The position numbers were made by a program, and so were the translations under genes. Shown in pieces: positions 5,575 through 61,062 of a DNA stretch of 64,000 bases (the stretch's first letter is position 1; each line of letters begins with the position of its first letter). The notes beneath the pieces were generated by a model, which made no database searches, had not been told where the DNA came from, and saw only the letters and a program-made list of their open reading frames with translations. Origin of the DNA: Mobula hypostoma (taxonomy: Eukaryota); assembly GCF_963921235.1 (NCBI RefSeq), contig NC_086108.1:66652001-66716000 (forward strand). The letters are read 5' to 3'.

Positions 5575-6160
5575 CCTAATTCCTTTAAGGTTGCTCTAGC
5601 TGGGGGTGGTAATAAAGACAAGCTCTCACTACCAATTAAATGCTCCCAGTGGTGTGTGCCTCAAATAGCCTCCGGCAACCCAGTCTGGCTCCTGGCCTTC
5701 ATGTGTGGCTTAGCTACTAAGTCCTGTGCAACTGTTTCTACTGACAGGAGAGGGGCAAAGGTGGATTACTGGTGCCTTAAAAGCAATCACTTTGGGCAGA
5801 TGGTGCTCGTCAGACATACTTGGCTGCTTATTCAGGAGAAGGAAAACACTATCTCAAACCTCCACTGCCTTGCAGCTATACCCACTCAGGAGTAAACCCC
5901 GAGTGATGGAGTCCCTAAAGCAGTCCTACATTGAGTTCAATGTTGACTAGCAACTCCTGCAATGCTGCTGGTAGCAAACTGTACCTGTCTCTGCTGTTCC
6001 TTTGGGTTCATCAGATGCATGGAGGGGGGAAGCTTGCTACATGGACAATGGCTTGCTCTCCATATCATACTGTCCAGACTTGCATACCTAGAGAGCTAGG
6101 ATGCAATATCCATGGTCAACTCTGACCAATAGAAGCCCTCATCTCACCTCACCTCAATCT
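5575..6160 (+). mobile_element. Probable non-autonomous element derived from an RTE-clade 5' UTR
   Basis: 'caggagaaggaaaacactatctcaaacctccactgccttgc' resembles a motif I recall from RTE-clade 5' UTRs. The segment ends in a short (CTCAC)n-like tail. Not verified by search. Confidence 0.35.
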
Positions 6161-6197
6161 TAAGTCCCTAAACATTGCAATTCTAAAACTTCCTAGA

Positions 6198-6330
6198 CCT
6201 TGTGAAGGGTCTCAGTCCAAAATATCGACTGTACTTTTTTCCATAGATGCTGCCTGGCCTGCTGAGTTCCTTCAGCATTTTGTGTATGTTGCTTGGATTT
6301 CCAGCATCTGCAGAATTTCTTTTGTTGGTG
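6198..6330 (+). mobile_element. Penelope-like tail fragment
   Basis: 'gaagggtctcagtccaaaatatcgactgt...gatgctgcctggcctgctgagttcc'. Confidence 0.7.
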
Positions 6331-7144
6331 ATTAGAATTCTAAAACTTGCCGTTTCCTTTACTAATTTCTCTAAAACCTAGCTCTTTGGTCGTCTATCTT
6401 TGTATGTGGCTTAGCCTCATTCTTTAATTGGATATTGCTCCCAAGAGGTGCCTTGGTTATTTTGCTTTACATAGATTAGATTATTGGTAGCCAGTTGCTT
6501 TACAATAAGAGTCATTTTCAAATAAGTGGTCTATTAATTGTTTATTGTAACAGGTGTAACTTGGTGTGAGGCAACGCAGCATGTAAATGTGTCTTATGAC
6601 CCTTGCATAAGTGTCTCTCCTCAAAATATTTCATAGCCCAGAAATTCCTTCAAAGACCTCCTGCAAAATAAAATTCTAATTGTGGTAAACTGGCTGCCTG
6701 AAGAGAGCAATCTACGGGCTATTTCCTGTGCTAATCAGGACAGCTGGCTCTGGACTTTTCAGCAAGTTTTGTTTGCTGCACGCATCTGTATGAGTATTTG
6801 TATGAGCACCCATACTGTCAATGGCATCAATGGGAGTGCAGTGAGCAGAATGCGTCTTCAGCACAATTTTCAAGTATATTGGTCTGAAAAAAATGACAGA
6901 TTTTGTTACTCAGAGAAACTAATTTTTACACTGCTTCCTCTGCTTTTCTTGAAACTAGGTTTTCCAGAAGTGCTTTTGCACAAAATGCTTTGCCTGTGAA
7001 GGACTTTGCTTCCTCACTTCAGGATTACTCCATGTCACACTTCGCACAATGTTGTGAAAGTCACCCAAAGTCTACACTAAAGGCTTAAAGGCTTCATTTA
7101 TTTCTCCTTCAGTCCACAGTGGCAGAGGTTGGCATAGTGGGTAC

Positions 7145-7339
7145 TGTGGTGATATCACATGTCACGTGTAAGAACGTGATTGGATAGAATTCCGAGCATG
7201 CACAGAAATGACAGCATGTTCGAGAAGCTTGTATGGTTAAGACGTGGTTGCTGTTTGCTGTTAAATAAAAGTTCTAGTTATGTCCTTCCAGAATATGGTT
7301 TGTTCTTAGTAACCCACAGTACATATCAAGAACACAACG
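7145..7339 (+). repeat. Gypsy 5' LTR (195 bp)
   Basis: Starts TGTGG and contains AATAAA. Differs from the 3' LTR by about 11 substitutions and one 8-bp indel (hand count). Confidence 0.95.
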
Positions 7340-7352
7340 TGGTGTCAGAAGT
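7340..7352 (+). promoter_or_regulatory. Primer-binding site complementary to the 3' end of tRNA-Leu
   Basis: TGGTGTCAGAAGT immediately follows the 5' LTR. It is complementary to the vertebrate tRNA-Leu 3' end ...ACTTCTGACACCA. Confidence 0.85.
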
Positions 7353-9077
7353 CGGTCTGGAAGAATAATTCATTTTGCTAACATGGGAGAAGCAAAGATA
7401 ATCGAAAACAAAAGAGTGTAAACTTTTTTGTTATTTGCTAACAGCTTCAAGAATGGAAGTTTTGCAACCCCTATCGACGCTTCAGCTGACTGGAAATGTA
7501 GCTGAAAACTGGAAAAGATTTAAACAGCGATTTGAAATTTATTTATTGGCAATCAGAGCAGAAAATAAATAGGAATAAAACGAAAGCAGCGATCCTACTC
7601 CACATGACTGGGGACGGACGATGCAGTTGAGGTATATAACCATTTTACTTTTGAGAATGGAGATAATTTGAATCTAAAAGTGATAATCGACAAGTTTGAA
7701 GCGTTTTGTATACTGAAGCGCAACGTGATGTATGAACGGTACAAATTCTTTATATGCAAGCAGAAAGCTGGTCAAATGATTGATCAGTTTGTTACAGAAT
7801 TGAGAAACCACAGAAAAACATGTGAGTTTGCAGAGCTGACGGACTTTGTCATTAAAGACAGAATTGTTTGCGGTATTCTGGATAATGCTCTGAGAGAAAG
7901 ACTCTTAAGAGAACCAGACGTAAATTTGGAAAAAGCTTTGATTCTCTGCAAAGCTTTGGAAACTGTAAAGTCGCAGGCTAAAGAGCTTTTTATTGAGAAC
8001 TGCAGCGTACATGCTGTGAATAACCACGAAGATGTTAGAAAAAAACAATGAAGCGACAACGAAACTGACGGAGAGCAAGATGTCATCTGAAAGAAAAGAA
8101 CTTTGTTATTACTGTGGGTGGCAGCACCGACCTAAAATGTGTCCAGCATATCAGAAAGTGTGCAACAATTGTGGTAAGGTTAACCATTTTTCACGCTGTT
8201 GCAGAAGCAGAAAGGAAATAAAACAAGTAAATGCAGTGCTTGAAAATGAACATGAGAAGTTTTACATAAATGTGCTTTGTGAAAATAAACAAAGTAAGAA
8301 TGACTGGACTATGCCATTGCAAGTGAACCAAAACATTATTCTGTTTAAATTGGATACTGGAGCACAAGTAAATGTTCTTGCAGAATCGGAGTTTAATGCA
8401 CTAAAGCCAAGACCAAAGTTACATCAGACAAATAGAAAAGTGACTGGGTATTCAGGTGCAGACATTCTAGTTAAAGGAACATGTGTGGCAAAAGTATCAC
8501 ACAAAAATATTGAGCACACCCTTTCATTTGTCGTAGTGCCAAAAAATGTATAGTCAATACTTGGTTTATCTGCCTGTGAGAGACTGAATTTGGTGAAAAG
8601 AATCTTAGTCCTGGACAGTGACACAGAATCAGAATACAGTGACTTGATGAAAGAGTATGAGGACTTGTTCAAAGGGCTTGGTTGTCTTCCAGGAGAGCAC
8701 ACGATTATAATTGACAACACAGTGCCACTGCCACCCGTAGTACACCCATGTAGAAAAGTACCTCTTGCATTACGTGATCAACTGAAAATAGAGCTTGACA
8801 GAATGGAACGGTTAGGGGTCATACAAAAAATTGATGAACCGACTGAATGGGTCAATTTGCTTGTTATTGTTGATAAGAAAAATGGAAAACTGAGGATTTG
8901 CTAAGATCCAAGAGACTTGAATTGAGCCATTAAAAGAGAGCATTTCAAATTGCCTACTCTTGAAGAAATTATGTCACAGTTTGCTAATGCAAAGTGCTTT
9001 ATTAAATTAGATGCATCCTCTGGACCCTGGCAACTTAAACTAGATGAACCGAGTTCAAAGTTGTGTACCTTTAATAC

Positions 9078-9408
9078 TCCTTAATACCCAGAGACTAGAC
9101 TGACATCTACATCATTTATTATTATATTGTAATTTGTCCTCTACTGTGCCTATTGTCTTATTTATTATTTATTGTACTGCCCTGCACTGTTTTGTGTGCT
9201 TTGTGTAGTCCTGTGTAGGTCTGTAGTCTAGTGTAGTTTCTGTGTTGTCTTATGTAGTCTAGTGTAGCCTTGTGTTGTCTCACTTAGTCTAGTGTAGTTT
9301 TGTGTTGTTTCACGCAGTACCATGGTCCTGGAGGAACGCTGTTTTGTTTTTACTGTGTACTGTACCAGCAGTTTATGGTTCAAATGACAATAAAAAGTGA
9401 CCTGACTT
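9078..9408 (+). mobile_element. 3' tail of a Rex1-like LINE inserted in the Gypsy RT region
   Basis: 'ctccttaatacccagagactagactgaca...catggtcctg...ctgtgtactgtaccagcag' is homologous to the LINE 3' end at ~38810-39068. Ends in a (GACTT)n-like tail. Confidence 0.8.
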
Positions 9409-10106
9409 GCATCAGCTCCTGAAGTGTGCCATAAAACTATTCACATGCTATATGAGCACATTGAGGGCGTGGATACTTCCATGGATGATATTATTGTTTG
9501 GGGATCATTTAAACAAGAGCACAACATCACACTTAGACAAGTGTTAGAGGTAACATGCAAGGCAAACCTGAAGTTGAATAAAGACAAATGTCAGCTAGGA
9601 ATGACTGAACTTACCTTTGTGGGTGATATCATCAGCAAAGATGGTGTGCGTCTTGATCCATTGAAGGTTTCTGCTATTGAGAACATGCCAAGACCGCAAT
9701 GTTCAAAGGTTTATGGGAATGGTCAACTACATGGGAAGATTCATACCCAATCTTTCAGAACAGCTTGCTCCATTGAGGCAGCTAACAGAAAAGAAAACCA
9801 AAATGGAGCTGGAATCATGAACAGGAGAAGGCATGGCAAAATCTCAAGAAACTGCTCACCAAAGAACCTGTGTTGAAATTCTAAGATGCTGAGAGACCCA
9901 TCAAAATCTCATGTGATGCATCTCAAGCAGGCTTAGGGGCAGTATTATTCCAAAAACATGATCAGGAATGGCTACCACTGGCATATGCATCTCATGCATT
10001 GTCCGATCCAGAAACGAGATATGCCCAAATTGAAAAAGAACTGCTTAGTGTTATGTTTGCTTGTGAGAGATTTCATCAGTTTGTGTCAGGGCAATCTATT
10101 GATGTT

Positions 10107-10675
10107 AGAAACATAGAAACATAGAAAATAGGTGCAGGAGTAGGCCATTCGGCCCTTCGAGCCTGCACCGCCATTTATTATGATCATGGCTGATCATCCA
10201 ACTCAGAACCCCGCCCCAGCCTTCCCTCCATACCCCCTGACCCCTGTAGCCACAAGGGCCATATCTAACTTCCTTTTAAACATAGCTAATGAACTGGCCT
10301 CAACAGTTTGCTGTGGCAGAGAATTCCACAGATTCACCACTCTCTGTGTGAAGAAGTTTTTCCTAATCTCGGTCCTAAAAGGCTTCCCCTCTATCCTCAA
10401 ACTGTGACCCCTCGTTCTGGACCTCCCCAACATCGGGAACAATCTTCCCGCATCTAGCCTGTCCAATCCCTTTAGGATCTTATACGTTTCAATCAGATCC
10501 CCTCTCAATCTTCTAAATTCCAACGAGTACAAGCCCAGTTCATCCAGTCTTTCTTCATATGAAAGACCTGCCATCCCAGGAATCAATCTGGTGAACCTTC
10601 TTTGTACTCCCTCTATGGCAAAGATGTCTTTCCTCAGATTAGGGGACCAAAACTGCACACAACAACTCTAGGTGT
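10107..10675 (-). mobile_element. Young CR1 3' fragment inserted in the Gypsy RNase H region
   Basis: ORF 10203..10658 is a CR1 ORF2 C-terminus. (AGAAACAT)n tail. Nearly identical to 48955-49510. It splits the Gypsy peptide SIDV|ETGHKPL. Confidence 0.95.
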
Positions 10676-12223
10676 TGAAACTGGTCATAAGCCTTTGATT
10701 GCATTGTTTAACAAACCTTTAAGCGACTGTCCTTTACGAATTCAGCAAATGATGATCAAATTACAAAGATATGCATTGAATGTGTCATACACACCTGGAA
10801 AATTCATGTACACGGCTGATACACTTTCCAGAGCTGTGGATCCAACAACAAAAGACAGTCACAGGAACACTATTGATGTTCAGGTATTTATTGATATGGT
10901 CATAGAAACTGTACCGGTTGCTCCCAAAAGGTTGGAACTGCTGCGTCTTGAGACAGAGAAGGACAAAATTCTCAGTCAGGTAATACAAGTGGTGATGGAT
11001 GGATGGATGGCCAGACAGTTAGCATGACTGCACCTCAGAAGTACAAGAATATTGGAACCACAGATCAGAACTTTCTGTTGTGGATGGGATATTGTACAAA
11101 GGTAGCAGAATTGTAATTCCTAAAAGCCTCCAAAATGAAATGCTTGGGAAAATTCATGAAGGCCACCTAGGTATTGAAAAGTGTATGAGAAGGGTGCAGG
11201 AAGTGATGTTTTGGCCCAGGATGAATCAAGAAATTGCAGAACTGGTGTCTTCTTGTCGAATATGCTTTAAATACCAACCTAGCAACCCTAAGGAGCCACT
11301 GCATCCACATTCTAGTCCTCAGAGATCTTATCAGAAGGTAGGCGTTGATCTATTTGTAACTGACAACAAAGATTATCTATTAATAACAGATTACTACTCT
11401 TTGTATCCTGAAGTGTGTGGTTTGCATAGAACAACAGAAAAGAATGTAATTACATGCATGGAATCTGTTTTTTCCAGACATGGTGTACCTATTGAAGTTT
11501 TCACAGACAATGGTCCACAATTCAATGGTGAACGCATGAGACATTTTGCTTAGGAATGGGGCTTTGTTCAGACAACATCTAGTCCAATTTTTCCTCAGTC
11601 CAATGGATTAGTTGAGAAGTTGGTAGGAATTATCAAAAAACTGATGCACAAAGCAAAATATAGTGGAGGTGATTTTTATGAAGCTTTGTTAGCCTATTGT
11701 AGTACTCCACTTGAATGTGGATTTTCACCTGCTCAGCTCTTGATGGGACGCCATTTGAGATCCAATCTTCCAATAAATGAGAGCCTTCTGAGAACAGAGG
11801 GAGATGAACAAGTGAAAAGATGGAAAGATGAACACAAAGCAAAGCAGAAAGCATCCTTTGACAGATGTTCTCATCCATTATCTGAACTGCACCAAGGAGA
11901 GGAAGTGAGGATACAAGACAAAATGAATACATGGGCACAGAAAGCTACAGTACTTGAAGAAGTACAACCCAGATCATACATGGTCCAAACAGAAGAAGGG
12001 GGAGTGCTAAGAAGAAATTGCAAAGACCTCAAGAAAGAGCCAACTTCGGGGTTTCATTTAACTGATGCAGGCCAGACAAAACATGAAAATAACAACAAAA
12101 CACAAAAACTGTATGAACCACTTAGAAGGTCTACTCGTGTTCGTAAACCCCCAGAGAGACTGATAGAGACGTGTTAAATTATGCATTTGTTTTGATTAAT
12201 GTTGCTAATTGTTTTTCTTTTTT

Positions 12224-12236
12224 AAGGAAAGGAAGA
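12224..12236 (+). promoter_or_regulatory. Polypurine tract
   Basis: AAGGAAAGGAAGA directly precedes the TG of the 3' LTR. Confidence 0.85.
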
Positions 12237-12439
12237 TGTGGTGATATCACATGTCATGTGTACATGTGTAAGAACGTGATTGGACAGAATTCGGAGCATG
12301 CGCAGAAATGACAGAATGTTTGAGAAGCTTGTATGGTTAAGACATGGTTGCTGTTTGCTGTTAAATAAAAGTTCTAGTTATGTTCTTCCAGAATATGGTT
12401 TGTTCTTAGTAACCCACGGTACGTATCAAGAACACAACA
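12237..12439 (+). repeat. Gypsy 3' LTR (203 bp)
   Basis: TG...CA termini, homologous to 7145-7339, followed by the TSD GGTAC. Confidence 0.95.
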
Positions 12440-12599
12440 GGTACACTTTTCAAAGTGCAGGTATTCAGAAACTACTTTCAACCCCTGATTATCTTCATGC
12501 CCTTAACCCACCCTTAGACATTGTTCTTCACCAACGTCCACGCCAACCATTTATATAAATCTGACATTCATTCCTTTTATGTTCTCTCCATTTGCTCAA

Positions 12600-12995
12600 T
12601 AACACAAATTCTACCATTCACTTTACACTAGACGCAATTTACGATGGCCATATCAACTCGCACTTACTTGGAATGTAGGAGTAAACCAGAGTACTTAGAG
12701 TCATGGAACACTGTAGCACAGAAGCTGGCACTTTGGACCATCTAGTCCATGCTAAATAATTAATCCGCCTAGTCCCATCAACTTGCACCTAGACCACAGC
12801 CCTCCATACCTCTCCCATCCGTGTACCTTATCCAAATTTCTTTTAAATGTTGACATCGAACCCAGATCCACCACTTCCACTGGAGGAAACACGCAGTGAC
12901 TTGAACAATATGCAAGCTTCACATAAAGAGGCCATGGGGTTAGGATTGAACCTGGGTTTCTGACAGGTAAGGCACTGCACTAAAGGCTACAGTAC
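12600..12995 (-). mobile_element. Degenerate V-SINE-like element interrupted by a CR1 3' tail (~12697-12882)
   Basis: 'ttggaatgtaggagtaaaccagagtac' and 'ggattgaacctggg' (reverse-strand V-domain and B-box) flank a segment similar to the CR1 3' end at 160-350. Confidence 0.55.
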
Positions 12996-13319
12996 TGTTC
13001 CTTCTCTCTTCTCCCAGAAGACACTATGTGCTCATCTTAATTAAGTCTCACAAAGTCCAGTCACTAACTTCAGTATGTGAGTCTTGAGGTCTGCGAACCA
13101 ACTAGCTACTTCTGCCATCACAAGCAATTCCTACTCTAGTCTCATCTTATGTCCCATCAACATCATTTTGCAGCAGAAACGATAAACATTAATAAAAGTT
13201 CCTAGATTCTCAAAATGTCTCAACAGATTAGAAAACACGTCTATTTGAGAATGGAGCGAGACAGAGAAAAGAGATGTATGGGCCAGTTAGTTCAAAATTC
13301 AGCTACTGGAAAATATTGG

Positions 13320-15850
13320 AATCCTTTATTAAGGAATTATTTCTCAGTACGTAGAAAAAAATCATGGTGGGGCAAAGTCTGAGAAGTAAATTTGTTGGAC
13401 AAATGGGTTTGTGTTAATCTATAAATAGCAGGGTAGATAAGGTGGAGCCAATAAAAACAATATGATTGAACTCCCAAAACAACCTATCAGGTAAAACATG
13501 ATAGGTTGCTGAACAAATAAAAGGGTCACAAGTATGTAAGTGACATCTTATGACAGATAAGCAGAGAGCAAGGATAAACAAGGTATAACCCTGGAGTGCC
13601 TTGGGCATTAATGTATTTTACAGTTTATAGTACTAACTCAGACCATAACTAAAGTGTCCAGAGTTGCTGATGATGCAAAAACAAGTGGGAGAGTACACGA
13701 TGAGAAGGACACAAATCTTCCCAGAGGGAGATAATGAGTTCCAGTAATGTGAGGGAAAAAAGACTGCAGATGGAAAATATTTTGGGTCTTTCCCACTTTG
13801 GTAGGAAAATTAATAGTATTTAAAAGTCTATTTTATAATGTGGTTGGAGAGATTGTGTCTCTTTAAATAAGGACCATGAAAAATTAACATACAACTCTAC
13901 CAAGTAATTAGGAAGGCAAATTAAATATTGGGCTTTATTACAGGAGAGATATAGTTGTAAGGTAGGGAAAGCTTCCTATGACATCAGGACTTTTGTATGG
14001 TCACAGTAATACAGCAAGGAAACAGGCTCCCTGTACCAATTATTGCATCCTTCCTGCAAGTCCTAATTGCCCAGATTCAGCCCATAACCATCCAAGCCCC
14101 TCACCTCCATGTTCTGATCCAAATGGTCCTTAAATTTACAATTGTATCCACCTTGACCCACTCCAGGTACTTGCTATCCTCTGTGTAAAGAACTTACATC
14201 TCAGATCTCTCTTAAAACTCTCCCCTCTTATCTCATACCTGTGTATTCTAGTTTTGGACTCCCCCAACTGGGGGGGGGGGGGCAAAACTACAACTGTCCA
14301 CCTTTCATGATTTTATAAACTTTGATGAGGTCACTTCTCATTCTCCAGCACTGCAGGGAATAAAGGTACAGAATGGGCAACCTTCTTCCTAAAACTCAAG
14401 CCCTTTAGGCAACATCCATGTAAATCTCTTCAGCACCCTTTCCGTCTTTACAATGCCTTCCCTATAACAGGGTGACCAAAGTTGTACCCAGCGCTTCAAG
14501 TGCAGTCTCACCAATTTCTTGTGCAACTGTAACATAATTCCCCCACTTTTAAACTTCATGCTCTGAGAGGTGAAGGCCAGCATGCTAAATACCTTCTTCT
14601 CCACCCTGTCTATTTGCAAGGCCAGCAGGAAAAACACCACCTTTAACATTCTGTGTGACTTAGGTGGCTACTTTCATGAGGAATACCGTGTGCAGTTAGC
14701 AGCTCATCAAGAATAATGTGCACATTTTTGACTCACATTTTCAGAATGCTATTTTACCTTGCATGTGGTCACCACACTGATTCCTAGAACAAGGGGTTTG
14801 TCATCTTTGGAAAGGTTGATCAGGGCCAAGAAGAATGAAAAGTGATCTCAAATGTAATGTACAAGATTCTGAGATGTTAGATGCCGTGCAGATATGTCTT
14901 CTTATAGGGGGTTCTAAAACTAGGGGCCAGTGTCTGATGAGAAGTGATTGGCCACTTAATGAGGAAAAAATTCTTCTCTAAGCATTATGAATTTTGGAAT
15001 TTTCTGCTCTAGAGAGCTAAAGATATTGAGTCATTAAGTATATTCTCAGCTGGAGATGAGGCGGCGCATAGGATGAAATTAGTTGCTTCAAAGTAACTAG
15101 TTGAGTGGTATTACAACAACAGCATAATAAATGATTTGAGGTTTAGTATGTCACCAAATACTCTTCAAAATTTCTAATGATATAAGGTGGAGAGCATTCT
15201 GACAGGTTGCATCACCTGGTATGAATGCTCCAATGCACAGGGTTGTTGTGTTAGCCAGCTCCATCAAAGCACAACCCTCCTCATCTTTGAGGAGACCTTC
15301 AAGAGACAGTGCCTTACTTAAAAGGGTGGTGTCCTTTGCTAAAGGCCCTCACCAAAACTGTCCCATGATTAGACTAGAGTTAAATCGGGGGTTGCTGGGT
15401 GGTGCAGCTCGAAGGGCTGGAATCTGCGCTGTATTTCTAAATGCATAAATAAAAATCCAAGACATGCCCTCTTCTTTTGATTACCATTAAGGAAGGAGGT
15501 ACAGGAGCCTGAAGACCCACACTCAATGATTCAGAAACAACTTCTTTCCTTCCACCGTCAGATTTCTAAATTGTCCCTGGACATTGCCTGGTTATTCCTT
15601 TTATTTGCACTATTTATTTTGTAATTGGTAGTAATTTTACGTCTTTGCTCTGAACTGCTGCTGCAAAATAAAATATCTGATGTCATATAATAAACCTGTT
15701 TCTGATTCAAAACTGAGTTAAGTAACTTTCTTTAAAAAACAGGAACTGAAAGTTATCAAGCACATTGTTCAGATCAGCCCTGATTTAAATGAATAGTGGC
15801 CTGCCATGAGGAGTTATTTGGCTTCCTATTTCTCAAGTTCTTATTCGATT
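13320..15850. mobile_element. Patchwork of old LINE fragments: CR1 (+), CR1 (-, ~13990-14620) and Rex1-like (+, ~15120-15710)
   Basis: ORF 14389..14649 (LVRLHLKRWVQLWSPCY) is CR1. 'gttgctgatgatgcaaaa' is a decayed FADD motif. 15130-15710 resembles the Rex1-like 3' region at 39840-40250. Confidence 0.6.
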
Positions 15851-16659
15851 TTATTCAATAAAAATATCATTCAAAGTATCATTAGCATATCTGAAACAGG
15901 GAGTTAATTGTTCGTTGAAAAATCAAAGATTAAAATATTCTTGCTGCCACAGGCTTTTAAGTCTACAGAAACCAGCAGAATAATGTTGACACTGAAATCT
16001 TTGAATCTTGTAGTATTCATTCATACGTACCACCCACACCATACAGAAAGCACTTCCTTACTAATTATACATTTTTAAAGGGAACTGTTGAACTTCAAAG
16101 TAAGTTATATACATGCAGCACAATTTCAAAAGACAGGTTTAAGTTGTGGTTTGGAATCTTTTTTGCTTAGGTCTAGCACTACAAATGCAATGCTTCAAAC
16201 TTGACATTTAATACCTCAATATAAATCATTCTTCAGACTGAGCTTCCTGAGAGTGTGGACAAGAATACAGCTGAACAGAACTTAATATACAGTAAAATTT
16301 TCAGTGTAAACAATGCTGATATTTTTGTCTGATTACAGAGCCATTAAAGTATATATGTGACCATATATAATAGAAATACTCTCACAATCATTCTAAAGTA
16401 TCTGAAAATACCACAGACTCTTCCACAACAATTCTCTGCAGTGTCACACAAAATGACAAATAGTGGAATTAGTGCGCACTTCAAATACTTTACAACACTG
16501 TCCCCGGTTTTATGGTGATCAGTATGCTACCGCTTGCTTGTGAAAAGACCTATCGAATGATTAAATTTGGTCATAAAAGATCTCTGTAATAAACATAGTT
16601 CTTGAAAAGGAAACTAAAGAGGCTCAGAATCTTGTTTTCCATTTATCATACTTGACTCA

Positions 16660-21880: not shown

Positions 21881-22404
21881 ACATTATACTAAATATCTTA
21901 ATGGGTTAGAAACAGTGATGGTCAAAAGTTGTTCATGAAGGCAAATTAAAGGAGAATCAAAAGTATATAATAGTCATGAGATTCTGATGATGCTGGATAT
22001 GCTGAAAAGTATGCAACATCAGACTTTGTGATAGAAACAGATGGACCACTGTTTACATGGACAATGAGCATTGACTTATCTGCCTATGCAAAATAATATG
22101 CTGATCTCTGAGATGTTCAATACTTCCAACAGCTCCCCAAGTGACTCTTACTCTATACAATTACCAAACAAACCAGTAAAGCTTTGGACCAATTCATCTA
22201 AATTTGCTAATGGTTAACAATGATAAATTTGAATTACTTCCATTTAACTTCTGTGGCCCCTGAAGAATCACTGAGTATGGCATCTCAATCCTTCTGATAC
22301 ACTTCAGAGGTGACCAGAGTTTCTACTGCAGAAGACCACAAAATGTCAAAGGGCAAGCACAATTGTAAATACATTTGACCTTCACTAATCTGACTACCTG
22401 TAAT

Positions 22405-22833
22405 TAGGTTCCTTCGATAATCCGGCACTGATTTCAAATTTTCCGTGCAACTGTAATTTCAAGTTTCCCGGGCCACTGTACCAATCTGCTGCGCATTGTT
22501 TGGTTGCGCTAGATCTGTTCATGTATTGGTGCGCTCTTGTAAGCACAGGCAGGCGATTCCTGCTTGCTTTCCTGCATTTATTATTATTATTTGCGTGAGG
22601 CACGACTGCCCACGCCCGCTTGTCTCACCCACCAGTGGCGAGGGAGCTGGCGCGTGCTGAGTTGGTCCGTCTTCTCGCCTGCCTGCTGGCAGTCACGCAT
22701 TGCCCTCCAGCGTCGCCCAGCCAGCGCTCCGTTCTCTTCTGCCTACAACCTCAGATCAGTCATGGCGACCTGCTGAATTTAAGCATATTACTAAGCAGAG
22801 GAAAAGAAATTAACAAAGATTCCCTCAGTAACT

Positions 22834-22870
<37 letters not shown>

Positions 22871-23391
22871 GCCGCCTGCAATGTGGCGTATAGAAGACCT
22901 CCTTTCTGCAACTTCTGCTTCTGCTCACCCAGATGTGCTGCCACCAACATCAACAGTTCTCGATCAACTTCAGCTGTTGTGCCGGTTTCAGCCCCAGTTC
23001 CTGATGCTTCACTCATTTTCCAAGATGAAGATGTTGATGATCCTGACAACCCCACACTTGCAGACAGGTAACTTTGCCTGAAGGTATACTAAATGTCTCA
23101 CTTTAGAAGCGGAAGTACTCAACTGTTCTGTATAAGTTAATTCCTGTACATTTACCTGTGCCCTTTATTTTATCTGTGCCTTTACAGTGTATTACTTTAT
23201 TAAAACTTCACTTGCTGCTCATTTAATATTTCTGTTTCATTATTATCTAACCTGTACTGACTTACATGATATTTTAGAGGTATGATGAGGCAGTGAGCTA
23301 TTGCTTAATGTGATCCTTCTGTAATTCAGCATTTTCACTAATCTGCCACTCCTCAGGTCCCAATAGTGCCGGATTATAGAAGGTCAACCTG
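22405..23391 (+). mobile_element. Tigger/pogo-like non-autonomous DNA transposon carrying an rDNA fragment
   Basis: Left end 'taggttccttcgataatccggcact' (22405-22429) is an imperfect inverse of the right end 'agtgccggattatagaaggtcaacctg' (23365-23391), which is followed by TA. An acidic peptide resembling a transposase tail (QDEDVDDPD) is encoded at ~23020-23050. Confidence 0.75.
22744..22899 (+). rRNA. 28S rRNA 5'-end pseudogene fragment, preceded by probable ITS2 3' end (~22600-22743)
   Basis: 'acctcagatcagtcatggcgacctgctgaatttaagcatattactaagcagaggaaaagaaattaac...gattccctcagtaactgcgagtgaagagggaagagcccagcgccgaatcccc...aatgtggcgta' matches the conserved eukaryotic LSU 5' end, with substitutions partly at CpG sites. 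The upstream ~140 bp is GC/CpG-rich, as expected for ITS2. Confidence 0.95.
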
Positions 23392-26300
23392 TAGTCACAA
23401 AAGCATCTGTGCTCGTCCGCTCATTGATTCAGTGAGGCCTTTCACCTAGCGAATGAATCCCAGTCCTAACTACTAGAAAATACAATTTATAATCAAGGAC
23501 CAAGTGAGAAGTAGTAGTTGAAATTAAAGCTATCAATGTCGATGAACAAGAACCTAGTGTTCAGCCAGACAGTTGATGAATGATATGCATAAACGTCAGG
23601 CCAATAAGCACACTTCTCAATCCAATTCTTTGTGGGTGAAATGACATCATTCATGCATGACTGACACGTCAATAGCTGTCATGTACATATGAGGGAGCTA
23701 CACCCAGAAGTTTCAAACAGGTATGAAGCTACTCAGGAGCGATTGCTCCTGTCATTCACTCAAGAAAAGCTGTATAAAGTTGTATTTATTAGTGTTATAC
23801 CATCAATTTCTTGGCATTTACTTCTAAGTACAAATAAATTATGTCCAAATGTTTTCAAAATTAATATTTCATTACCTAAATTAGTAGAAATAAGTAACTA
23901 TTGGATGAAAAGGCATGTGAGATTTTAAATTGCTGCTCACTGAAAGTAACATAAATGTCAGAGTGCAAGTGACTGCAGTATAAGAAGATATGAATATAAA
24001 AGTAACATGTTCAAACAAGGCTAGGCATTAGAAATAAGATATTAATTGATATTAATTGATGAAATGCATGCGGGTCCAAATAGATCAATTCCTCACTAAT
24101 TAACTCTTTGAGAAAGTATCTGGGGAATATTCCTTTACCTGGAGCTATGGAGTTGTCATAACTAAAATGCAGCTAGTTAACATTTGGTTATTTTAATCAA
24201 GGTTACATTGAATTTGTTTGCTTCATTGACATTGGATTAGGGAGAGAGGTTAAACAATGTGCTAAATAGAGGTTAAACAGAGTTCTCCTTAGAGAATAGA
24301 CGTATGAACACATTGAGGGTGTACTGCATAGGATTATGACTTTGATGCTTTCATAATTGAACTGCTTTTGCTAATGCAGATCAGAAACAGGTATGATGAT
24401 AATCAGTTTGACAATACTAATGGAACTGTATGGAAACCTTTATTAATCCTTTCCTAAGAGACTAGATATGGGAAGACATGATATACAAAAGTATTTAATT
24501 ATCATTTCTATAATGCTCAATGACTGATGAGTCATCATGCAAAACTTACTGATGGGCAACTCAGATGGGCCATACAGGCAGTAGCTGAAAACTGATCCAA
24601 TTCAATAGCTCTTGGTTCTGTCAAACAAAATCTTACCTCAATACTTTGAGAGGCTGAGACACATAGATTGATAGTAACTCACACCCACTAATCCATTGAG
24701 AGATTAAGTATATGACCTCTGATTTGCAGCATGGTTTTTCGAGTTCTTCCTGGTTAGACTTCCCTCACCACATCAATTTCAAAAGTGATGAAGAATGGGG
24801 AGACATCTGGATGGAAAGCACTCTCTGAAACAAAGAACTCATTCAAATCCCCAAGGCAGGCGTCCCTAAATTTCATCAGCCTGAAAGCACAATGGACAGC
24901 TCTGAACAGGATCTGAACAAGGCATGGGCATCATAGCCACTCAGAGCATATGTGACAAATTAAAGCTTTCCCTGCTGTGATCAAAGAATGGACCTCAGTA
25001 TCACGTCCTTCTGCCAGCACAATATCACTGGAAATAGTGAAATAAACTCTCTTTCTCAAATAGCCATATAATGGCCTACAAACTTAGAACTCAAGTTAGA
25101 TATGCTCTCTCTGTCACATTGCTGACCAGAATTATCATCAGAGATTATTTTATACATTTTCAGATGTTGTAATGTCCTAGAAGCAAAGTTAAAAAAAAAG
25201 CATCTTCCAATGCAATGTCTTCAGTATAAGGAGATGGTATTAATTGCACTGTGCCGTACAGTAATACACTCTTCAGGATAAAGTGAAAGTCAAGAAGCAG
25301 CTATTATCCACAATACTTAATGAAAAGACTAGTAACTCATTGCAGGTACACTTATCTACTTTTGGTTGATAAACGTGTCTGAAAATCAAAAGTATTTTAT
25401 ATTGTCTCTCTTGTCAAATCTTCGTGTTACTGCCTATTATTCCTCTGCTCTCAAATCAAGGGAAAAAAATGGCTATTTGCTCTCCATTCAAAGAACTCAA
25501 GTTTCCCTCCCTGTCCTTATAGATATTTAGAAAGAGGCTGTTTGGATTCCAATGCAAACTGAGATTTTACCCTGCAGTCATAGAGACAAGAGTATGTCTC
25601 CCTTTGATAGAAGTCGGAGCATAATTCAGTTGCTAGGAGGGCACAACCTTCAAATTCAGCCCGACAAAGACAACACATGAACACAAAGAACCATTTCAAG
25701 AGCTCTACAACTTAAACCAAACAAATCTCAAGAATGAAGGGATGACTATGACAGGTCTTAGCTCCATGGCATTGCCATAGTGATGAGTACACATGGTAAC
25801 AACTAAACATCCCCAAGATGGTTAAATCCAAAGGTTTTATATCTTACATAGCATATATTCATTATATCATGATGAAAAGTACTTAGGGCTGATTTATGCT
25901 ACTTTACTGGCTGAGTTGGTTAATGTAGTTTGTAACTGGTCAAAAAAATCTCATATCTGCTCTCTGCCAAGTTAGCTGTCAGTCGGGTGTGATAAGAGAA
26001 TTGCAGGAGGGCTAAAAGGACTTGTGCTCTCATTGATTACTATACAGTAATGCTCATTGTAAGTGTCTATTGGATGGGCATAGGATCACGCTTAGCAGCT
26101 GAATTGGCTATCAACACTTAAATGTGAAAAAATGGTTATTATGTCATTCAAAAAGTGAGCAGAAAAGTGATTTTAAAAAGTTCATATTGAGTTACAACGT
26201 GCTGATAATGCAGTCTTGGATTACGAGCAACAACATGTTATTTGACTCTTCATCCAGATATCATTACCTGGAATTTATTGAGAAATTAGTTTACTTACAC

Positions 26301-48764: not shown

Positions 48765-51700
48765 AAGATGGCAGTGACAGCGGCCACCCCACTTCCAATC
48801 AATGGTGAAATTTCTTGTCCTGTTCAACTTTTCTATGACCAAACACTGCTGATCATAAAAAACACTAAAGTCTGCAAGTCCATCTTGCTAGCAAGCAGAA
48901 TAACGAAGCTGCTGCGCAGATAGGGACTAACGCAGGAGCAGGCCCTTGTTCCACAGAAACATAGAAAATAGGTGCAGGAGTAGGCCATTCGGCCCTTCGA
49001 GCCTGCACCGCCATTTATTATGATCATGGCTGATCATCCAACTCAGAACCCCGCCCCAGCCTTCCCTCCATACCCCCGATCCCCGTAGCCACAAGGGCCA
49101 TATCTAACTCCCTCTTAAATATAGCCAATGAACTGGCCTCAACAGTTTCCTGTGGCAGAGAATTCCACAGATTCACCACTCTCTGTGTGAAGAAGTTTTT
49201 CCTAATCTCGGTCCTAAAAGGCTTCCCCTTTATCCTCAAACTGTGACCCCTCGTTCTGGACTTCCCCAACATCGGGAACAATCTTCCTGCATCTAGCCTG
49301 TCCAATCCCTTTAGGATCTTATATGTTTCAATCAGATCCCCCCTCAATCTTCTAAATTCCAACGAGTACAAGCCCAATTCATCCAGTCTTTCTTCATATG
49401 AAAGTCCCGCCATCCCAGGAATCAATCTGGTGAACCTTCTTTGTACTCCCTCTATGGCAAAGATGTCTTTCCTCAGATTAGGGGACCAAAACTGCACACA
49501 ATACTCCAGGTGTGGTCTCACCAAGGCCTTGTACAACTGCAGTAGTACGTCCCTGCTCCTGTACTCAAATCCTCTCTCTATAAATGCCAGCATACCATTC
49601 GCCTTTTTCACCGCCTGCTGTACCTGCATGCCCACTTTCAATGACTGGTGTATAATGACACCCAGGTCTCGTTGCACCTCCCCTTTTCCTAATCGGCCAC
49701 CATTCAGATAATAATCTGTTTTCCTATTTTTGCCACCAAAGTGGATAACTTCACATTTATCCACATTAAATTGCATCTGCCATGAGTTTGCCCACTCACC
49801 CAACCTATCCAAGTCACCCTGCATCCTCTCAGCATCCTCCTTACTGCTAACACTGCCACCCAGCTTCGTGTCATCTGCAAACTTGGAGATGCTGCATTTA
49901 ATTCCCTCATCCAAGTCATTAATATATATTGTAAACAACTGGGGTCCCAGCACTGAGCCTTGCGGTACCCCACTAGTCACCGCCTGCCATTCTGAAAAGG
50001 TCCCATTTATTCCCACTCTTTGCTTCCTGTCTGCTAACCAATTCTCCACCCACACCAATACCTTACCCCCAATACCGTGTGCTTTAAGTTTGCACACTAA
50101 TCTCCTGTGTGGGACCTTGTCAAAAGCCTTTTGAAAATCCAAATATACCACATCCACTGGTTCTCCCCTATCCACTCTACTAGTTACATCCTCAAAAAAT
50201 TCTATGAGATTCGTCAGACATGATTTTCCTTTCACAAATCCATGCTGACTTTGTCCGATCATTTTACCGCTTTCCAAATGTGCTGTTATCACATCCTTGA
50301 TAACTGACTCCAGCAGTTTACCCACCACCGACCTTAGGCTAACCGGTCTATAATTCCCCGGTTTCTCTCTCCCTCCTTTTTTAAAAAGTGGGGTTACATT
50401 AGCCACCCTCCAATCCTCAGGAACTAGTCCAGAATCTAACGAGTTTTGAAAAATTATCACTAATTCATCCACTATTTCTTGGGCTACTTCTTTAAGCACT
50501 CTAGGATGCAGACCATCTGGCCCTGGGGATTTATCTGCCTTCAATCCCTTCAATTTACTAACACCACTTCCCTACTAACATGTATTTCACTCAGTTCCTC
50601 CATCCCACTGGACCCTCTGTCCCTTACTATTTCTGGAAGATTATTTATGTCCTCCTTAGTGAAGACAGAACCAAAGTAATTATTCAATTGGTCTGCCATG
50701 TCCTTGCTCCCCATAATCAATTCACCTGTTTCTGTCTGCAGGCGACCTACATTTGTCTTTACCAGTCTTTTCCTTTTTACATATCTATAAAAGCTTTTAC
50801 AGTCCATTTTTATGTTCCCTGCCAGTTTTCTCTCATAATCTTTTTTCCCCTTCCTAATTAAGCCCTTTGTCCTCCTCTGCTGAACTCTGAATTTCTCCCA
50901 GTCCTCAGGTGAGCCACTTTCTCTGGCTAATTTGTATGCTTCTTCTTTGGAATTGATACTATCCCTAATTTCTCTTGTCAGCCACGGGTGCACTACCTTC
51001 CTTGATTTATTCTTTTGCCAAACTGGGATGAACAATTGTTGTAGTTCATCCATGCAACCTTTAAATGCTTGCCATTGCATATCCACCGTCAATCCTTTAA
51101 GTGTCATTTGCCAGTCTATCTTAGCTAATTCACGTCTCATACCTTCAAAGTTACCCCTCTTTAAGTTCAGAACCTTTGTTTCTGAATTAACTATGTCACT
51201 CTCCATCTTAATGAAGAATTCCACCATATTATGGTCACTCTTACCCAAGGGGCCTCTCACGACAAGATCGGTAATTAACCCTTCCTCATTGCTCAAAACC
51301 CAGTCCAGAATAGCCTGCTCTCTAGTTGGTTCCTCGACATGTTGGTTCAAAAAACCATCCCACATACATTCCAAGAAATCCTCTTCCTCAGCACCTTTTC
51401 CAATTTGGTTCACCCAGTCTACATGTAGATTGAAGTCACCCATAATAACTGCTGTTCCTTTATTGCACACATTTCTAATTTCCTGTTTAATACCATCTCC
51501 GACCTCACCACTACTGTTAGGTGGCCTGTACACAACTCCCACCAGCGTCTTCTGCCCCTTGGTGTTACGCAGCTCTACCCATATCGATTCCACATCTTCC
51601 CGGCTTATGTCCTTCCTTTCTATTGCGTTAATCTCTTCTTTAACCAGCAACGCCACCCCACCTCCCCTTCCTTCATGTCTACCCCTCCTGAATATTGAAC

Positions 51701-52270
51701 TGCACCATGGTCTGCTGTAGCTACACCAGGAAGTGGCCTTTGGAAGCGTAGCACAAGAACGCAGAAGCACGGTAAGCGTGCCGGTATTTGAGCAAGGCTT
51801 AAAGTAGATCTCTGCAGGCATGCACTCCCAATGATTCTACTTAATGAGGCTATCGGGACTTTGAGACTTTTGTTTTACCGTGCCCATGGTCTGCTCTTTA
51901 TCAAATTATGGTATTGCTTTGCACTGTTGTAACTATATGTTATAATTATGTGGTTTTGTAAGTTTTAGTCTTGGTTTATCCTGTGTTTTCTCGTGATATC
52001 ATTCTGGAGGAACGTTGTATCATTTTTTAGTGCATGCATTTCCAAATGACAATAAATGAGGATTGAGTGTCCTCATAATCTAATATAACCTAGCATTTGA
52101 TCACTATAAAATAAGCTGGATTTCCTGTGTCTGCGCTTGAATCAGCGGGAGATGAGGGACTACTGCACACTCGTCCTGACAGAAACATGGCTGCAGGACA
52201 CCACTCCAGACCTGGCCATCCAGATTGAAAGCCTGATTGCCTTTTGGGGAGATGGAAATGCTGTGACCGT
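48765..52270 (+). mobile_element. 5' part of a Rex1-like LINE (5' UTR and APE N-terminus), split by a CR1 and a short LINE tail
   Basis: After the CR1 the sequence encodes QKHGKRAGI*ARLK...ALP (~51760-51830). After a ~255-bp insert it encodes NKLDFLCLRLNQREMRDYCTLVLTETWLQD (ORF 52137..52358), an APE endonuclease start. Confidence 0.7.
48955..51698 (-). mobile_element. Young CR1 LINE, 5'-truncated within APE, ORF2 almost intact
   Basis: ORFs 50550..51821 (GGGVAL, VVYRPP, MGDFN, LDWVL, SDHN) and 49024..50553 (complete RT) are joined by one frameshift at ~50555. (AGAAACAT) tail at 48955. Confidence 0.97.
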
Positions 52271-52409: not shown

Positions 52410-53716
52410 CAGGTGTCCCCCGCTTTTCGAAAGTTCACTTTACGACACCTCGCTGTTACGAAAGACCTACATTAGTTACCTGTTTTTCTTAACAGAAGGT
52501 GTTTTCACTGTTACGAAAAAAAGCAGCGCGTGAAAAAAGGCAGCGTGCGAAACAAGGCAGCCAAGCTCCTCCCCTGGAGCTGCGTTCTAGCCGGCATTGC
52601 TTAAACACGTGCCTGTGAGCATCTGTGCTTTATGTCGATTTATTTTGAGCATCTGTTAGCAAGATGACTTCTAAGGTATTGGAAAAGCCAAAAAAGAGCT
52701 CATAAGGATGTTACACTTAGCATAAAACTAGACATAATTAAGCAATCGTGGTCAACGAAGTAAGGACAAAGTGAGTTTGGCTTGTGGAAGTTGATGAAGA
52801 TGATGTTGAAGAGATTTTGGCATCCCATGACCAAGAACTGATAGATGAAGAGCTGATACAATTGGAAGAGGAGAACAATCGAAACCGAATGCAGTAGCGA
52901 ACGAACCAAAAGTGAAGTCGTCTAGGAACTGAACGTGAAGCAACTGCGTGAGATTTTCACTGCAATTGACAACAGTGATTGCAGAAAAGTACGACTTTAA
53001 TTTTGAAAGGGTACTTAGGTTTAGGGCATATTTGCAGGATGGTTTGAGTGCTTACAAAGAACTGTATGATAGCAAAATGCGCAAGGCTAAGCAGTCAAGC
53101 AAGCCTTCCACATCAGCCACAGCAGACGACGAACATCGACCTTCGACATCGAGGCAGGCAGACATAAAAGATGACCTGCCTGCCCTGATGGAAACAGACG
53201 ACGATGAGATGACACCCCAGTGTCCCACCACCCCAACCTCCGACGAATCAGCCTAACACATCATCATCAGTGTGCTCGCTGTCTTCCTGATTCTGGTAAG
53301 TGATACTACACTGTACATACATTATTTCTACTTTATATAGGCTGTGTATTTTTATTTGTTATTTGGTATGATTTGGCAGCTTCATAGCTTAAAGGTTACT
53401 GGAGAGAGTGTTTCTGCCGAGAGCGCTTGCGTGAGAATTTCGCTACGGTGGACAGTGTAGCAATGATTGCAGAAAAGAATTTCTACTTTATATAGGCTGT
53501 GTATTTATCATATCATTCCTGCTTTTACTATATGTTACTGTTATTTTAGGTTTTATGTGTTATTTGGCATGATTTGGTAGGTTATTTTTTGGGTCTGCGA
53601 ACGCTCACAAATTTTTCCCAGATAAATAAATGGTAATTGCTTCTTCACTTTACGACATTCCGGCTTACAAACCGTTTCATAGGAACTCTCTACCTTCGGA
53701 TGGCAGGGGAAACCTG
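52410..53716 (+). mobile_element. Tigger/pogo (CENP-B-like) DNA transposon, internally deleted
   Basis: TA|CAGGTGTCCCCCG...GGGGAAACCTG|TA with imperfect TIRs and TA TSD. Transposase remnants LSIKLDIIK and EVDEDDVEEILASHDQELIDEELIQLEEE. It sits inside another Tigger-like remnant that ends 'cagttaaccagaatcctctg|ta' at ~53837. Confidence 0.88.
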
Positions 53717-59234: not shown

Positions 59235-61062
59235 AAGCCTGGGTGTTATCCTTGATTTCAATTTGAATTTTAAATTCCACAAAAAAAGAAAGCAACCAAG
59301 GCAGCACTTCTACATTTAAAATTTGCAAAGGTACACCTGTTTCTGTCACATAATGATGCTGAAAAACTAAATCACACCTTTACACAAAATACTCTGCAGA
59401 TGCTGGGGTCAAAGCAACACTCACAGTACGCTGGAGGAACTCAGCAGGTCGGGCAGCATTCGTGGAAATGATCAGTCAGCGTTTCGGGCCGGAACCCTTC
59501 ATCAGGACTGTAGAGGGAAGGGGCAGAGGCCCTATAAAGAAGGTGGCGGGAGGGTGGGAAGGAGAAGGCTGGTAGGTTCCAGGTGAAAATCCAGTAAGGG
59601 GAAAGATAAGGGGTGGGGGAGGGGATAGGCAGGAAAGGTGAAGAAGGAAATGGGGAAAGCCCAATGGGTAGTAGAAGGAGGCAGAACCAAAAGGGAGGTG
59701 GTAGGCAGCTGGGGGAGGGGGCAGAGTGACATAGGGATAGGGCAAGGGAGGGGGAGGGAATTACCGGAAGTTGGAGAATTCTATGTTCATACCAAGGGAC
59801 TGGAGACTACCCAGACAGTATGTGAGGTGTTGCTCCTCCAACCTGAGTTTAGCCTCATCATGGCAGTAGAGGAGGCCATGTATGGACATATCTGAATGGG
59901 AATGGGAAGCAGAGTTGAAGTGGGTGGCTACCGGGAGATCCTGTCTGTTGTGGCAGACGGAGTGGAGATACTCGATGAAGCGGTCCTCCAATCTGCGTTG
60001 GGTTTCACCGATGTAGAGGAGGCCACACCGGGAGCACTGGATGCAATAGATGACCCCAACAGACTCACAAGTGAAGTGTTGCCTCACCTGGAAGGACTGT
60101 TTGGGGCCTTGAATGGTGGCAAGAGAGGAGTTGTAGGGACAGGTGTAGCACTTACTCTTACAGGGATAAGTGCCGGGAAAGAGACCTTTGGGGAGGGACG
60201 TGTGGACCAGGGAGTCGCGGAGGGAACGATCCCTGCGGAAGGTGGAGAGGGGTGGAAAGGGAAAGATGTGCTTAGTGGTGGGGTCCTGTTGAAGGTGGCA
60301 GAAGTTGTGGAGGATAATTTGCTGGATCCGGAGGCTGGTGGGGTGGTAGGTGAGGACAAGGGGAACTCTGTCCCTGTTGTGGTGATGGGAGGATGGATTG
60401 AGGGCCGAAGTGTGGGAAATATAGGAGATGCGGGTAAGGGCATCATTGATAATGGCAGAAGGGAAATCACACCTTTATATTGCACTAACTAAATCAGTAC
60501 AATGCACTTTTTACTGGCCTTCCAAAGCAATCAATAGATTTTAACGCATTTAGAGCTCTGCTGCTAGACTTTTAACTAAGACCGTGATAAGGCAGCATAT
60601 CACTCCCATCTTAGCTACTCTGCATTGGCTTCCTCCGGCTTTTAAAACTGATTTCAAAGTTCTCTTACTTATTTATAAAGCTCTTAATCATCTGGGAGTA
60701 CATCACAGAATTACTTTGGTTCCATAATCCTGCTCGAGCTCTCTGGTCTTCTTCCGGCGATCTCATTAATTTAAACGATTTCCACAAAAGACAACTGGCA
60801 GGCCAGCTTTTTTGAACTATGCCCCTAAACTGTGGAATTCAATACTTAAAACTATAAGGGATGCAGACTGTGTTGACACTTTTAAATGCCAGCTCAAAAC
60901 CTATTTATTTAACCTTTCTTTTAACTAACATCTTTTTGTCTTTTATTTTCATAGGTATTTTTTATTTTTTATTTTGTGTTTTGTATTTCATGTTTGCACT
61001 TTATCCCATTGTAAAGCACTTTGAACTACATTATCTATATGAAGAGTGCTCTGTAAATAAGT
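59235..61062 (+). mobile_element. L2-clade LINE 3' fragment split by a Penelope insertion
   Basis: Decayed peptides LGVILD, DAEKLxHTF | NALFTGLP, AARLLT, HITPILATLHWLP and APKLWNS, typical of the L2 ORF2 C-terminus. Confidence 0.75.
59383..60463 (-). mobile_element. Penelope-like element, 5'-truncated (GIY-YIG endonuclease and tail), 14-bp TSD
   Basis: ORF 59761..60087 FTCESVGVIYCIQCSRCGLLYIGETQRRL (GIY-YIG with CCHH-type residues). TSD AAATCACACCTTTA at 59369-59382 and 60464-60477. Hammerhead motif at 59473-59510. Confidence 0.93.

Follow-up and report, generated by a model that had tools for sequence, protein, structure and literature searches.

A probable Tigger-type transposon family carrying the 5' end of the 28S rRNA gene

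The window analysed here, a stretch of 64,000 nucleotides, contains an element of 1,020 bp (22372-23391) that is flanked by TA at both sides and holds the 5' end of a 28S rRNA gene in its interior (Table 1). The element is quite probably an old copy, now decayed, of a multi-copy Tigger-type transposon that is non-autonomous and carries this 28S fragment together with what is likely the adjoining end of ITS2, a cargo likely captured in a single DNA-repair event and likely mobilised in trans.

Table 1. Features of the element and its target site, with positions in the window
Feature	Position	Strand	Basis
TA target-site duplication, left	22370..22371	.	sequence; family contigs carry TA ahead of the TIR
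Left TIR, damaged (one base lost, substitutions near its start)	22372..22396	+	gapped alignment to right TIR
Left sub-terminal repeats, TAATCCG-type motif	22397..22433	+	motif copies at 22386 and 22418
Left internal arm, high-copy	22434..22599	+	summed contig depth, run X1
GC-rich, formerly CpG-rich block, likely ITS2 3' end	22600..22745	+	68% GC, CpG decay, adjoins 28S start
28S rRNA gene 5' end, decayed, ~11-nt gap in D1 relative to L001	22746..22906	+	Rfam RF02543; L001 alignment
Ser/Thr/Pro-rich acidic frame, stop at 23071	22907..23071	+	translation; make-up like tail at 52939-53256
Right internal arm, sub-terminal repeats from ~23302	23072..23364	+	direct repeat 22381-22392 / 23334-23345; motif copies at 23322 and 23339
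Right TIR, intact	23365..23391	-	inverted-repeat comparison, alignment to left TIR
TA target-site duplication, right	23392..23393	.	sequence

Results

Ribosomal fragment

The identity of the fragment is revealed by the Rfam model of the eukaryotic large-subunit rRNA (LSU_rRNA_eukarya, RF02543), positions 24-103 of which match 22769-22848 with 94.7 bits (E 3.8e-21). This is the sole match at gathering level in the 64 kb; weak matches to NPPA-AS1_3, ceN106 and RAGATH-8 fall far under their thresholds and were taken as chance. The offset of the model places the start of the mature 28S at 22746, and the fragment covers model positions 1 to ~170 of 3,401. For comparison, an independent animal rDNA locus on a metagenome contig (L001), itself confirmed by Rfam, was used as the reference. 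The search for an rDNA reference from cartilaginous fish gave no match in viral contigs and, in metagenome contigs, none with a narrow pattern and one, L001, with a wider pattern. Against this locus, 22744-22915 exhibits 143 matches and 22 mismatches, 8 of which are of the kind left by CpG decay. The alignment has one gap, ~11 nt long and located in the D1 helix, and the likeness fades at ~22906. The initial annotation, made from the letters of the window, had placed a 28S 5' end at 22744-22899, and both the Rfam match and the alignment bear it out. Neither a poly-A tail nor a target-site duplication is found at either end of the 28S piece. L001 itself (positions 1-360) starts as animal ITS2-28S and enters unrelated AT-rich sequence at ~312; it is likely a host-DNA chimera of its metagenome assembly.

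Boundaries and classification

The terminal inverted repeats (TIRs) of the element are ~25-27 bp long, which is within the limit of 40 bp or less for Tigger-type elements. A single gap suffices to align the damaged left TIR to the right one, and the inverted pair 22375-22390 / 23372-23387 gives it further support. The left end had earlier been set at 22405, which is wrong by 33 bp. The inverted pair from which it was derived is real (22411-22429 / 23365-23383, 19 nt, 95%), but the supposed left TIR (22405-22429) is an inner sub-terminal repeat, and the outer TIR and its TA sit further to the left.

Public contigs of four runs (X1, X5, X9 and X22, taken from 24 listed runs, all of them contig sets) were mapped to 22000-22743 with a likeness cut-off of 80%; X9 stands for the runs X9-X20, whose shares of the stretch were small. 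Contigs of the family diverge from the window at 22370-22378 into unrelated flanks that end in TA followed by the start of the TIR. Loose ends at 22377 occur in 43, 36, 16 and 6 contigs of X1, X5, X9 and X22, respectively, with a flank agreement of 0.52-0.64 (0.54 for the 43 contigs of X1). At 22405-22406 the family reads C,C in nearly all of the depth and the copy in the window reads T,A; thus, the inner TA of this copy is a mutation and marks no target site.

The TA duplication, the short TIR and a shared inner TIR motif support assignment of the element, on these sequence features, as Tigger-type and non-autonomous. In Table S1 of PMC7386202, three rows of the Tigger sheet have this inner 10-nt motif in their TIR column, and none of the other sheets contains it. 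All three rows are insect Tig1-like Tigger elements with a TA duplication and the domains CENP-B_N/HTH_Tnp_Tc5 and DDE_1 (PMC7386202). The element thus resembles the Tigger family, as tabulated there, in its TA duplication, in a short TIR that starts with CAG and in the inner motif, but the outer bases of the TIR differ from those rows and the element has no transposase domain by which it could be placed in a tree. The sole cartilaginous-fish row of the same Tigger table, from the whale shark, has a TIR unlike that of the element (PMC7386202). No second copy of the element was found within the 64-kb window.

The acidic tail-like segment that had been noticed downstream of the 28S fragment is indeed present, its frame ending at 23071. 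Judging from the tail of a second Tigger-like element found in the window, this one is likely the C-terminal remnant of a lost transposase. Pfam searches with five frames of the element returned no transposase domain, and searches with the 53-aa tail peptide returned no transposase match and two unrelated low-complexity matches. The replacement of most of the transposase region by the ribosomal sequence, as stated earlier, is therefore an inference. The other Tigger-like element, at 52410-53716, is unrelated; it is ~1.3 kb long, has TA flanks and inverted ends of 27 nt (78%), and contains no rDNA. Its frame is truncated and includes an acidic tail (52939-53256).

Dispersed relatives and a shared insertion

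The flank of the window copy is represented by one contig per DNA run, with depths of 16.6, 11.7 and 8.2. In X1, where the flank has the depth of 16.6, the left arm has a summed depth of 5,700-16,000. At 22600 the summed depth in this run falls from ~9,000 to ~220 and then climbs to ~1,000 by 22743, and thus most left arms either are without the cargo or lie under the 80% cut-off. Relative to the flank, the depths in X1 and X5 amount to ~300-750 for the arm, 9-14 for 22600-22624 and 40-64 for 22700-22743, which is a rough scale, summed contig depth being no copy number. The family base at 22700 is found in 41, 34 and 29 contigs of X1, X5 and X9, and such family counts are lower bounds because copies that have undergone CpG decay independently fall under the 80% cut-off.

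At least 10 pieces, counted among the 32 listed, with 2,257 more outside the listing, extend across 22600 by no fewer than 31 letters in either direction (two in X1, five in X5 and three in X9). One of these is the window locus itself, with no differences. The other nine among those listed, which come from three organisms, differ from the window copy by 11.6-18.9%. The flank of organism B, on a contig covering 22000-22404, differs from that of organism A at only 8 of 405 bases (2%), without a gap. Because the former differences are far above the latter, the nine pieces are paralogues; distinct contigs at one point are also distinct sequences, which leads to the same conclusion. Thus, the junction of the arm and the GC-rich block is amplified, and this left junction is older than the split of the three organisms or is at least present in all three.

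As far as this junction, the chimeric structure is shared by nine diverged contigs of three organisms, the contigs having been mapped to 22743. The initial annotation had left the choice between a one-off capture and a mobile chimeric family; the diverged contigs that cross the left junction in three organisms favour the family, and do so for the sequence up to 22743. Among the pieces listed, six continue beyond 22743 and stop after another 5-70 letters, an indirect sign that they enter widely shared sequence there, where unitigs are expected to end. X22, a run guessed to be RNA, contains family contigs and a piece with 28 letters to the left of the junction that was excluded from the count; its contigs are evidence neither for a strand or level of transcription nor for transcription of the window locus itself.

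Dispersed copies with unrelated flanks are found in the contigs of X1, X5, X9 and X22, and, in the contigs mapped to the left end, the flanks of these other copies look AT-rich. A sister derivative of ~150 bp, a cargo-free MITE in which 22433 is joined to ~23302, occurs in all four runs (37, 33, 8 and 7 contigs, the first number being that of X1). Organism B possesses the same insertion as the window with the same damaged left TIR, and the flank contig of organism C reaches only ~22100. The sharing of the insertion by a relative indicates that it is old and no artefact of assembly.

GC-rich block

The block ahead of the 28S fragment (22600-22743) has 68% GC and 13 CpG, and its left flank has 38% GC and 0 CpG. 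Decay of CpG in the window copy explains 12 of the 21 family variants among those listed for 22600-22743, in a table with 70 more rows. Its composition and its position suggest that the block up to 22745 is likely the 3' end of ITS2. The last three bases ahead of the mature 28S start are those that end the spacer of L001, a weak agreement, and the score of a local alignment between the block and this spacer, which is a distant one, was reached by 240 of 2,000 shuffles. The earlier description of this stretch as CpG-rich and ITS2-like is upheld in its GC and CpG richness, and the likeness to the one spacer compared is not significant. A protein search with the frame that spans the junction gave three candidates, none of them significant.

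From 22670 to 22680 the summed depth in X9 increases about eightfold, from ~190 to ~1,500, and the number of contigs grows only slightly; X1 and X5 exhibit no such jump. This increase would be expected from a high-copy live rDNA spacer and is a hint of one. The same run has a few contigs of very high depth whose match is confined to the final 70 bases of the block (22675-22743); these are possibly the live ITS2 of the organism or a young sub-family. In some family contigs the letters at 22601-22671 are GC-rich but different, or 45-116 bases of the block (22601-22717) are missing; thus, the junction is not uniform. Candidate readings are that these variant forms may represent sub-families, internal deletions or a second rDNA donor.

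Discussion

Origin and spread of the cargo

The structure of the element suggests an origin in the repair of an internal break or excision gap of an ancestral transposon, during which template switching to the abundant rDNA would have put ~300 bp of the ITS2-28S junction in place of most of the transposase gene. With both ends and the sub-terminal binding motifs kept, the chimera could then have been cut and pasted to many TA sites, presumably by a transposase supplied in trans. Unrelated TA flanks and a common left junction are observed among the paralogues, which would continue into the 28S. Outside the nucleolar array the cargo would have been methylated and subsequently subject to neutral decay, and decay of CpG is what is observed. 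Both the insertion of the window copy and the damage to its left TIR predate the split of organisms A and B; with this damage the copy is now likely immobile.

A single uptake of the ribosomal piece is thus likely, followed by its spread as passive cargo. A function of the cargo is unlikely given the gap in D1, the lack of a folding signal (its folding is no better than that of shuffles, z 0.18, 50 of 100) and the fact that a cargo-free derivative has also spread. The suggestion of the initial annotation that the family spreads an rDNA processing junction and could yield small RNAs finds no support in the present analysis, in which the cargo is seen to decay.

The donor may alternatively have been RNA, that is, a fragment of pre-rRNA (32S-type) that was reverse-transcribed by LINE machinery into a break of the element and amplified afterwards. 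Pre-rRNA contains the ITS2-28S junction and would not differ in sequence from a DNA donor here. LINEs of the CR1/L2 type with reverse transcriptase abound in the window, and the cargo is sense-oriented relative to the tail frame. This route is nevertheless unlikely: the ends of the cargo have neither a poly-A tail nor a target duplication, the interior looks replaced rather than interrupted, as gap repair would leave it, and Pack-TIRs are described as arising by gap filling or template switching (PMC8277862). It is quite unlikely that the GC-rich block is instead the ordinary interior of a Tigger subfamily, with no ITS2, and that the 28S piece was taken up as a one-off by this copy or a few. 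Such an event would agree with the insignificant likeness of the block to the L001 spacer, with the extent of the read evidence, which covers up to 22743 and stops short of the 28S start, and with an insect Tigger in which the left TIR is likewise followed by GC-rich sequence (row 253 of Table S1, PMC7386202). Yet the fragment begins exactly at the mature 28S 5' end, with three matching bases beyond it, and has no target-site duplication or A-tail of its own; moreover, the high-depth contigs of X9 join at ~22675 and the paralogous contigs end shortly beyond 22743.

Gap repair with rDNA followed by amplification is also preferred to readings in which the cargo has a role. One of these makes the family the vertebrate equivalent of Pokey: the Tigger lineage would have passed through the rDNA array or traded sequence with it repeatedly, and its hundreds of dispersed ITS2-28S copies would feed small RNAs that match the pre-rRNA processing site or would have shielded the element from silencing because the host cannot target rRNA sequence. 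Exchange with the array would explain the variant GC-rich junction forms, but we consider this scenario very unlikely. It is highly improbable that the cargo has been retained as useful, whether as an rRNA-like shield of the transcript, for targeting to the rDNA or nucleolus, or as a source of small RNAs against the ITS2-28S processing site. The spread of the chimera to many loci in three organisms would suit such a benefit, and in Pokey the repeats of rDNA origin are kept matched to the array (PMC3849761). The CpG decay, the D1 gap and the absent folding signal speak against it, and the abundance of the ~150-bp sister (37 contigs in X1) indicates that the cargo is unneeded for spread. Finally, rDNA is a frequent source of assembly mis-joins, and L001 itself passes from 28S into unrelated AT-rich sequence. 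The probability that the window holds an assembly chimera of rDNA reads and a repeat is close to nil, as a contig of X1 spans 22537-22742 with no differences, organism B carries the same insertion and the 28S piece is decayed, unlike live rDNA.

Relation to known elements

The initial annotation knew of no carriage of rDNA as cargo by an element of this kind, but there are precedents: Pokey of Daphnia carries IGS repeats and a 48-bp ITS2 repeat (PMC3849761), and animal Pack-TIRs include Tigger carriers (PMC8277862). The presence of rDNA cargo in a DNA transposon is thus an uncommon but already known kind of event.

A close parallel in mode of action is the multicopy Pack-TIR. As in the Pack-TIRs of Tan et al. 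(2021, PMC8277862), host sequence lies between both ends of a TIR transposon; here the non-transposon host sequence between the TIRs is the 28S fragment. Tigger carriers are known among them (Pack-Tigger1), and the multicopy cases are reported to have spread by later transposition (PMC8277862). Multicopy Pack-TIRs as described there have few copies, whereas the family of the element numbers tens to possibly hundreds and is common to several species. The terms rRNA, rDNA and ribosomal do not occur in the main text of that paper.

Pokey and mPok (Elliott et al. 2013, PMC3849761) are similar in being DNA transposons with rDNA-derived pieces, namely the 48-bp ITS2 repeat and IGS repeats of 200 bp. 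As described there, Pokey belongs to piggyBac and has TTAA duplications; its target is a site in 28S, it has retained a transposase, and there is exchange between its repeats and the array. The present element, in contrast, has pogo/Tigger-type TA and coding 28S sequence in place of its interior, and its cargo is decaying. It has TA and CAG-type ends and no piggyBac ends or TTAA duplication, and the copy in the window is in a single-copy, non-rDNA flank rather than at a specific 28S site. SINE28 (Longo et al. 2015, PMC4994717) is likewise a dispersed repeat with 28S sequence in a vertebrate genome. It is described as a retroposon that goes back to the 3' end of 28S and bears target-site duplications of the LINE type as well as an A-rich tail (PMC4994717), whereas the element has the 28S 5' end inside TIRs and a TA duplication; none of those three traits of SINE28 is found in it. 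The element probably works like a multicopy Pack-TIR, exhibits the testable features of Tigger, and is neither Pokey nor SINE28.

In the table of a 2024 review, Pokey/mPok is the only entry of a DNA transposon with rDNA cargo (PMC10946416), and the literature covered here, mostly open-access and apart from Repbase and Dfam, contains in the parts consulted no description of a pogo/Tigger element with ITS2-28S cargo. The few DNA transposons known to carry rDNA are therefore joined by one of the pogo type from a vertebrate, which is probably also an example of Pack-TIR amplification to a high copy number. Frozen in the element, the cargo would preserve a dated record of an ancestral spacer since overwritten by concerted evolution. 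In practice, such copies can inflate counts of rDNA and give dispersed 28S signals in FISH or annotation. They can also include a near-match to the 28S primer site on which ITS2 barcoding in sharks and rays relies.

Other repeats in the window

The remainder of the window is repeat-rich and vertebrate-like, with remnants of LINEs and Gypsy elements. A decayed Gypsy-type LTR retrotransposon with protease and integrase domains and an LTR-like pair that is 91% alike occupies 7145-12438; it is interrupted at 10112-10675 by the 3' end of a LINE that is 96% like the one at 48952-49513. The latter sequence lies within a young CR1/L2-type LINE on the minus strand (48952-51836), in which the endonuclease and reverse-transcriptase frames (428 and 515 aa) are long and open, with a change of frame between them. 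A further frame of 237 aa on the minus strand (59761-60474) has no Pfam match and presumably resembles the endonuclease end of a Penelope-like element.
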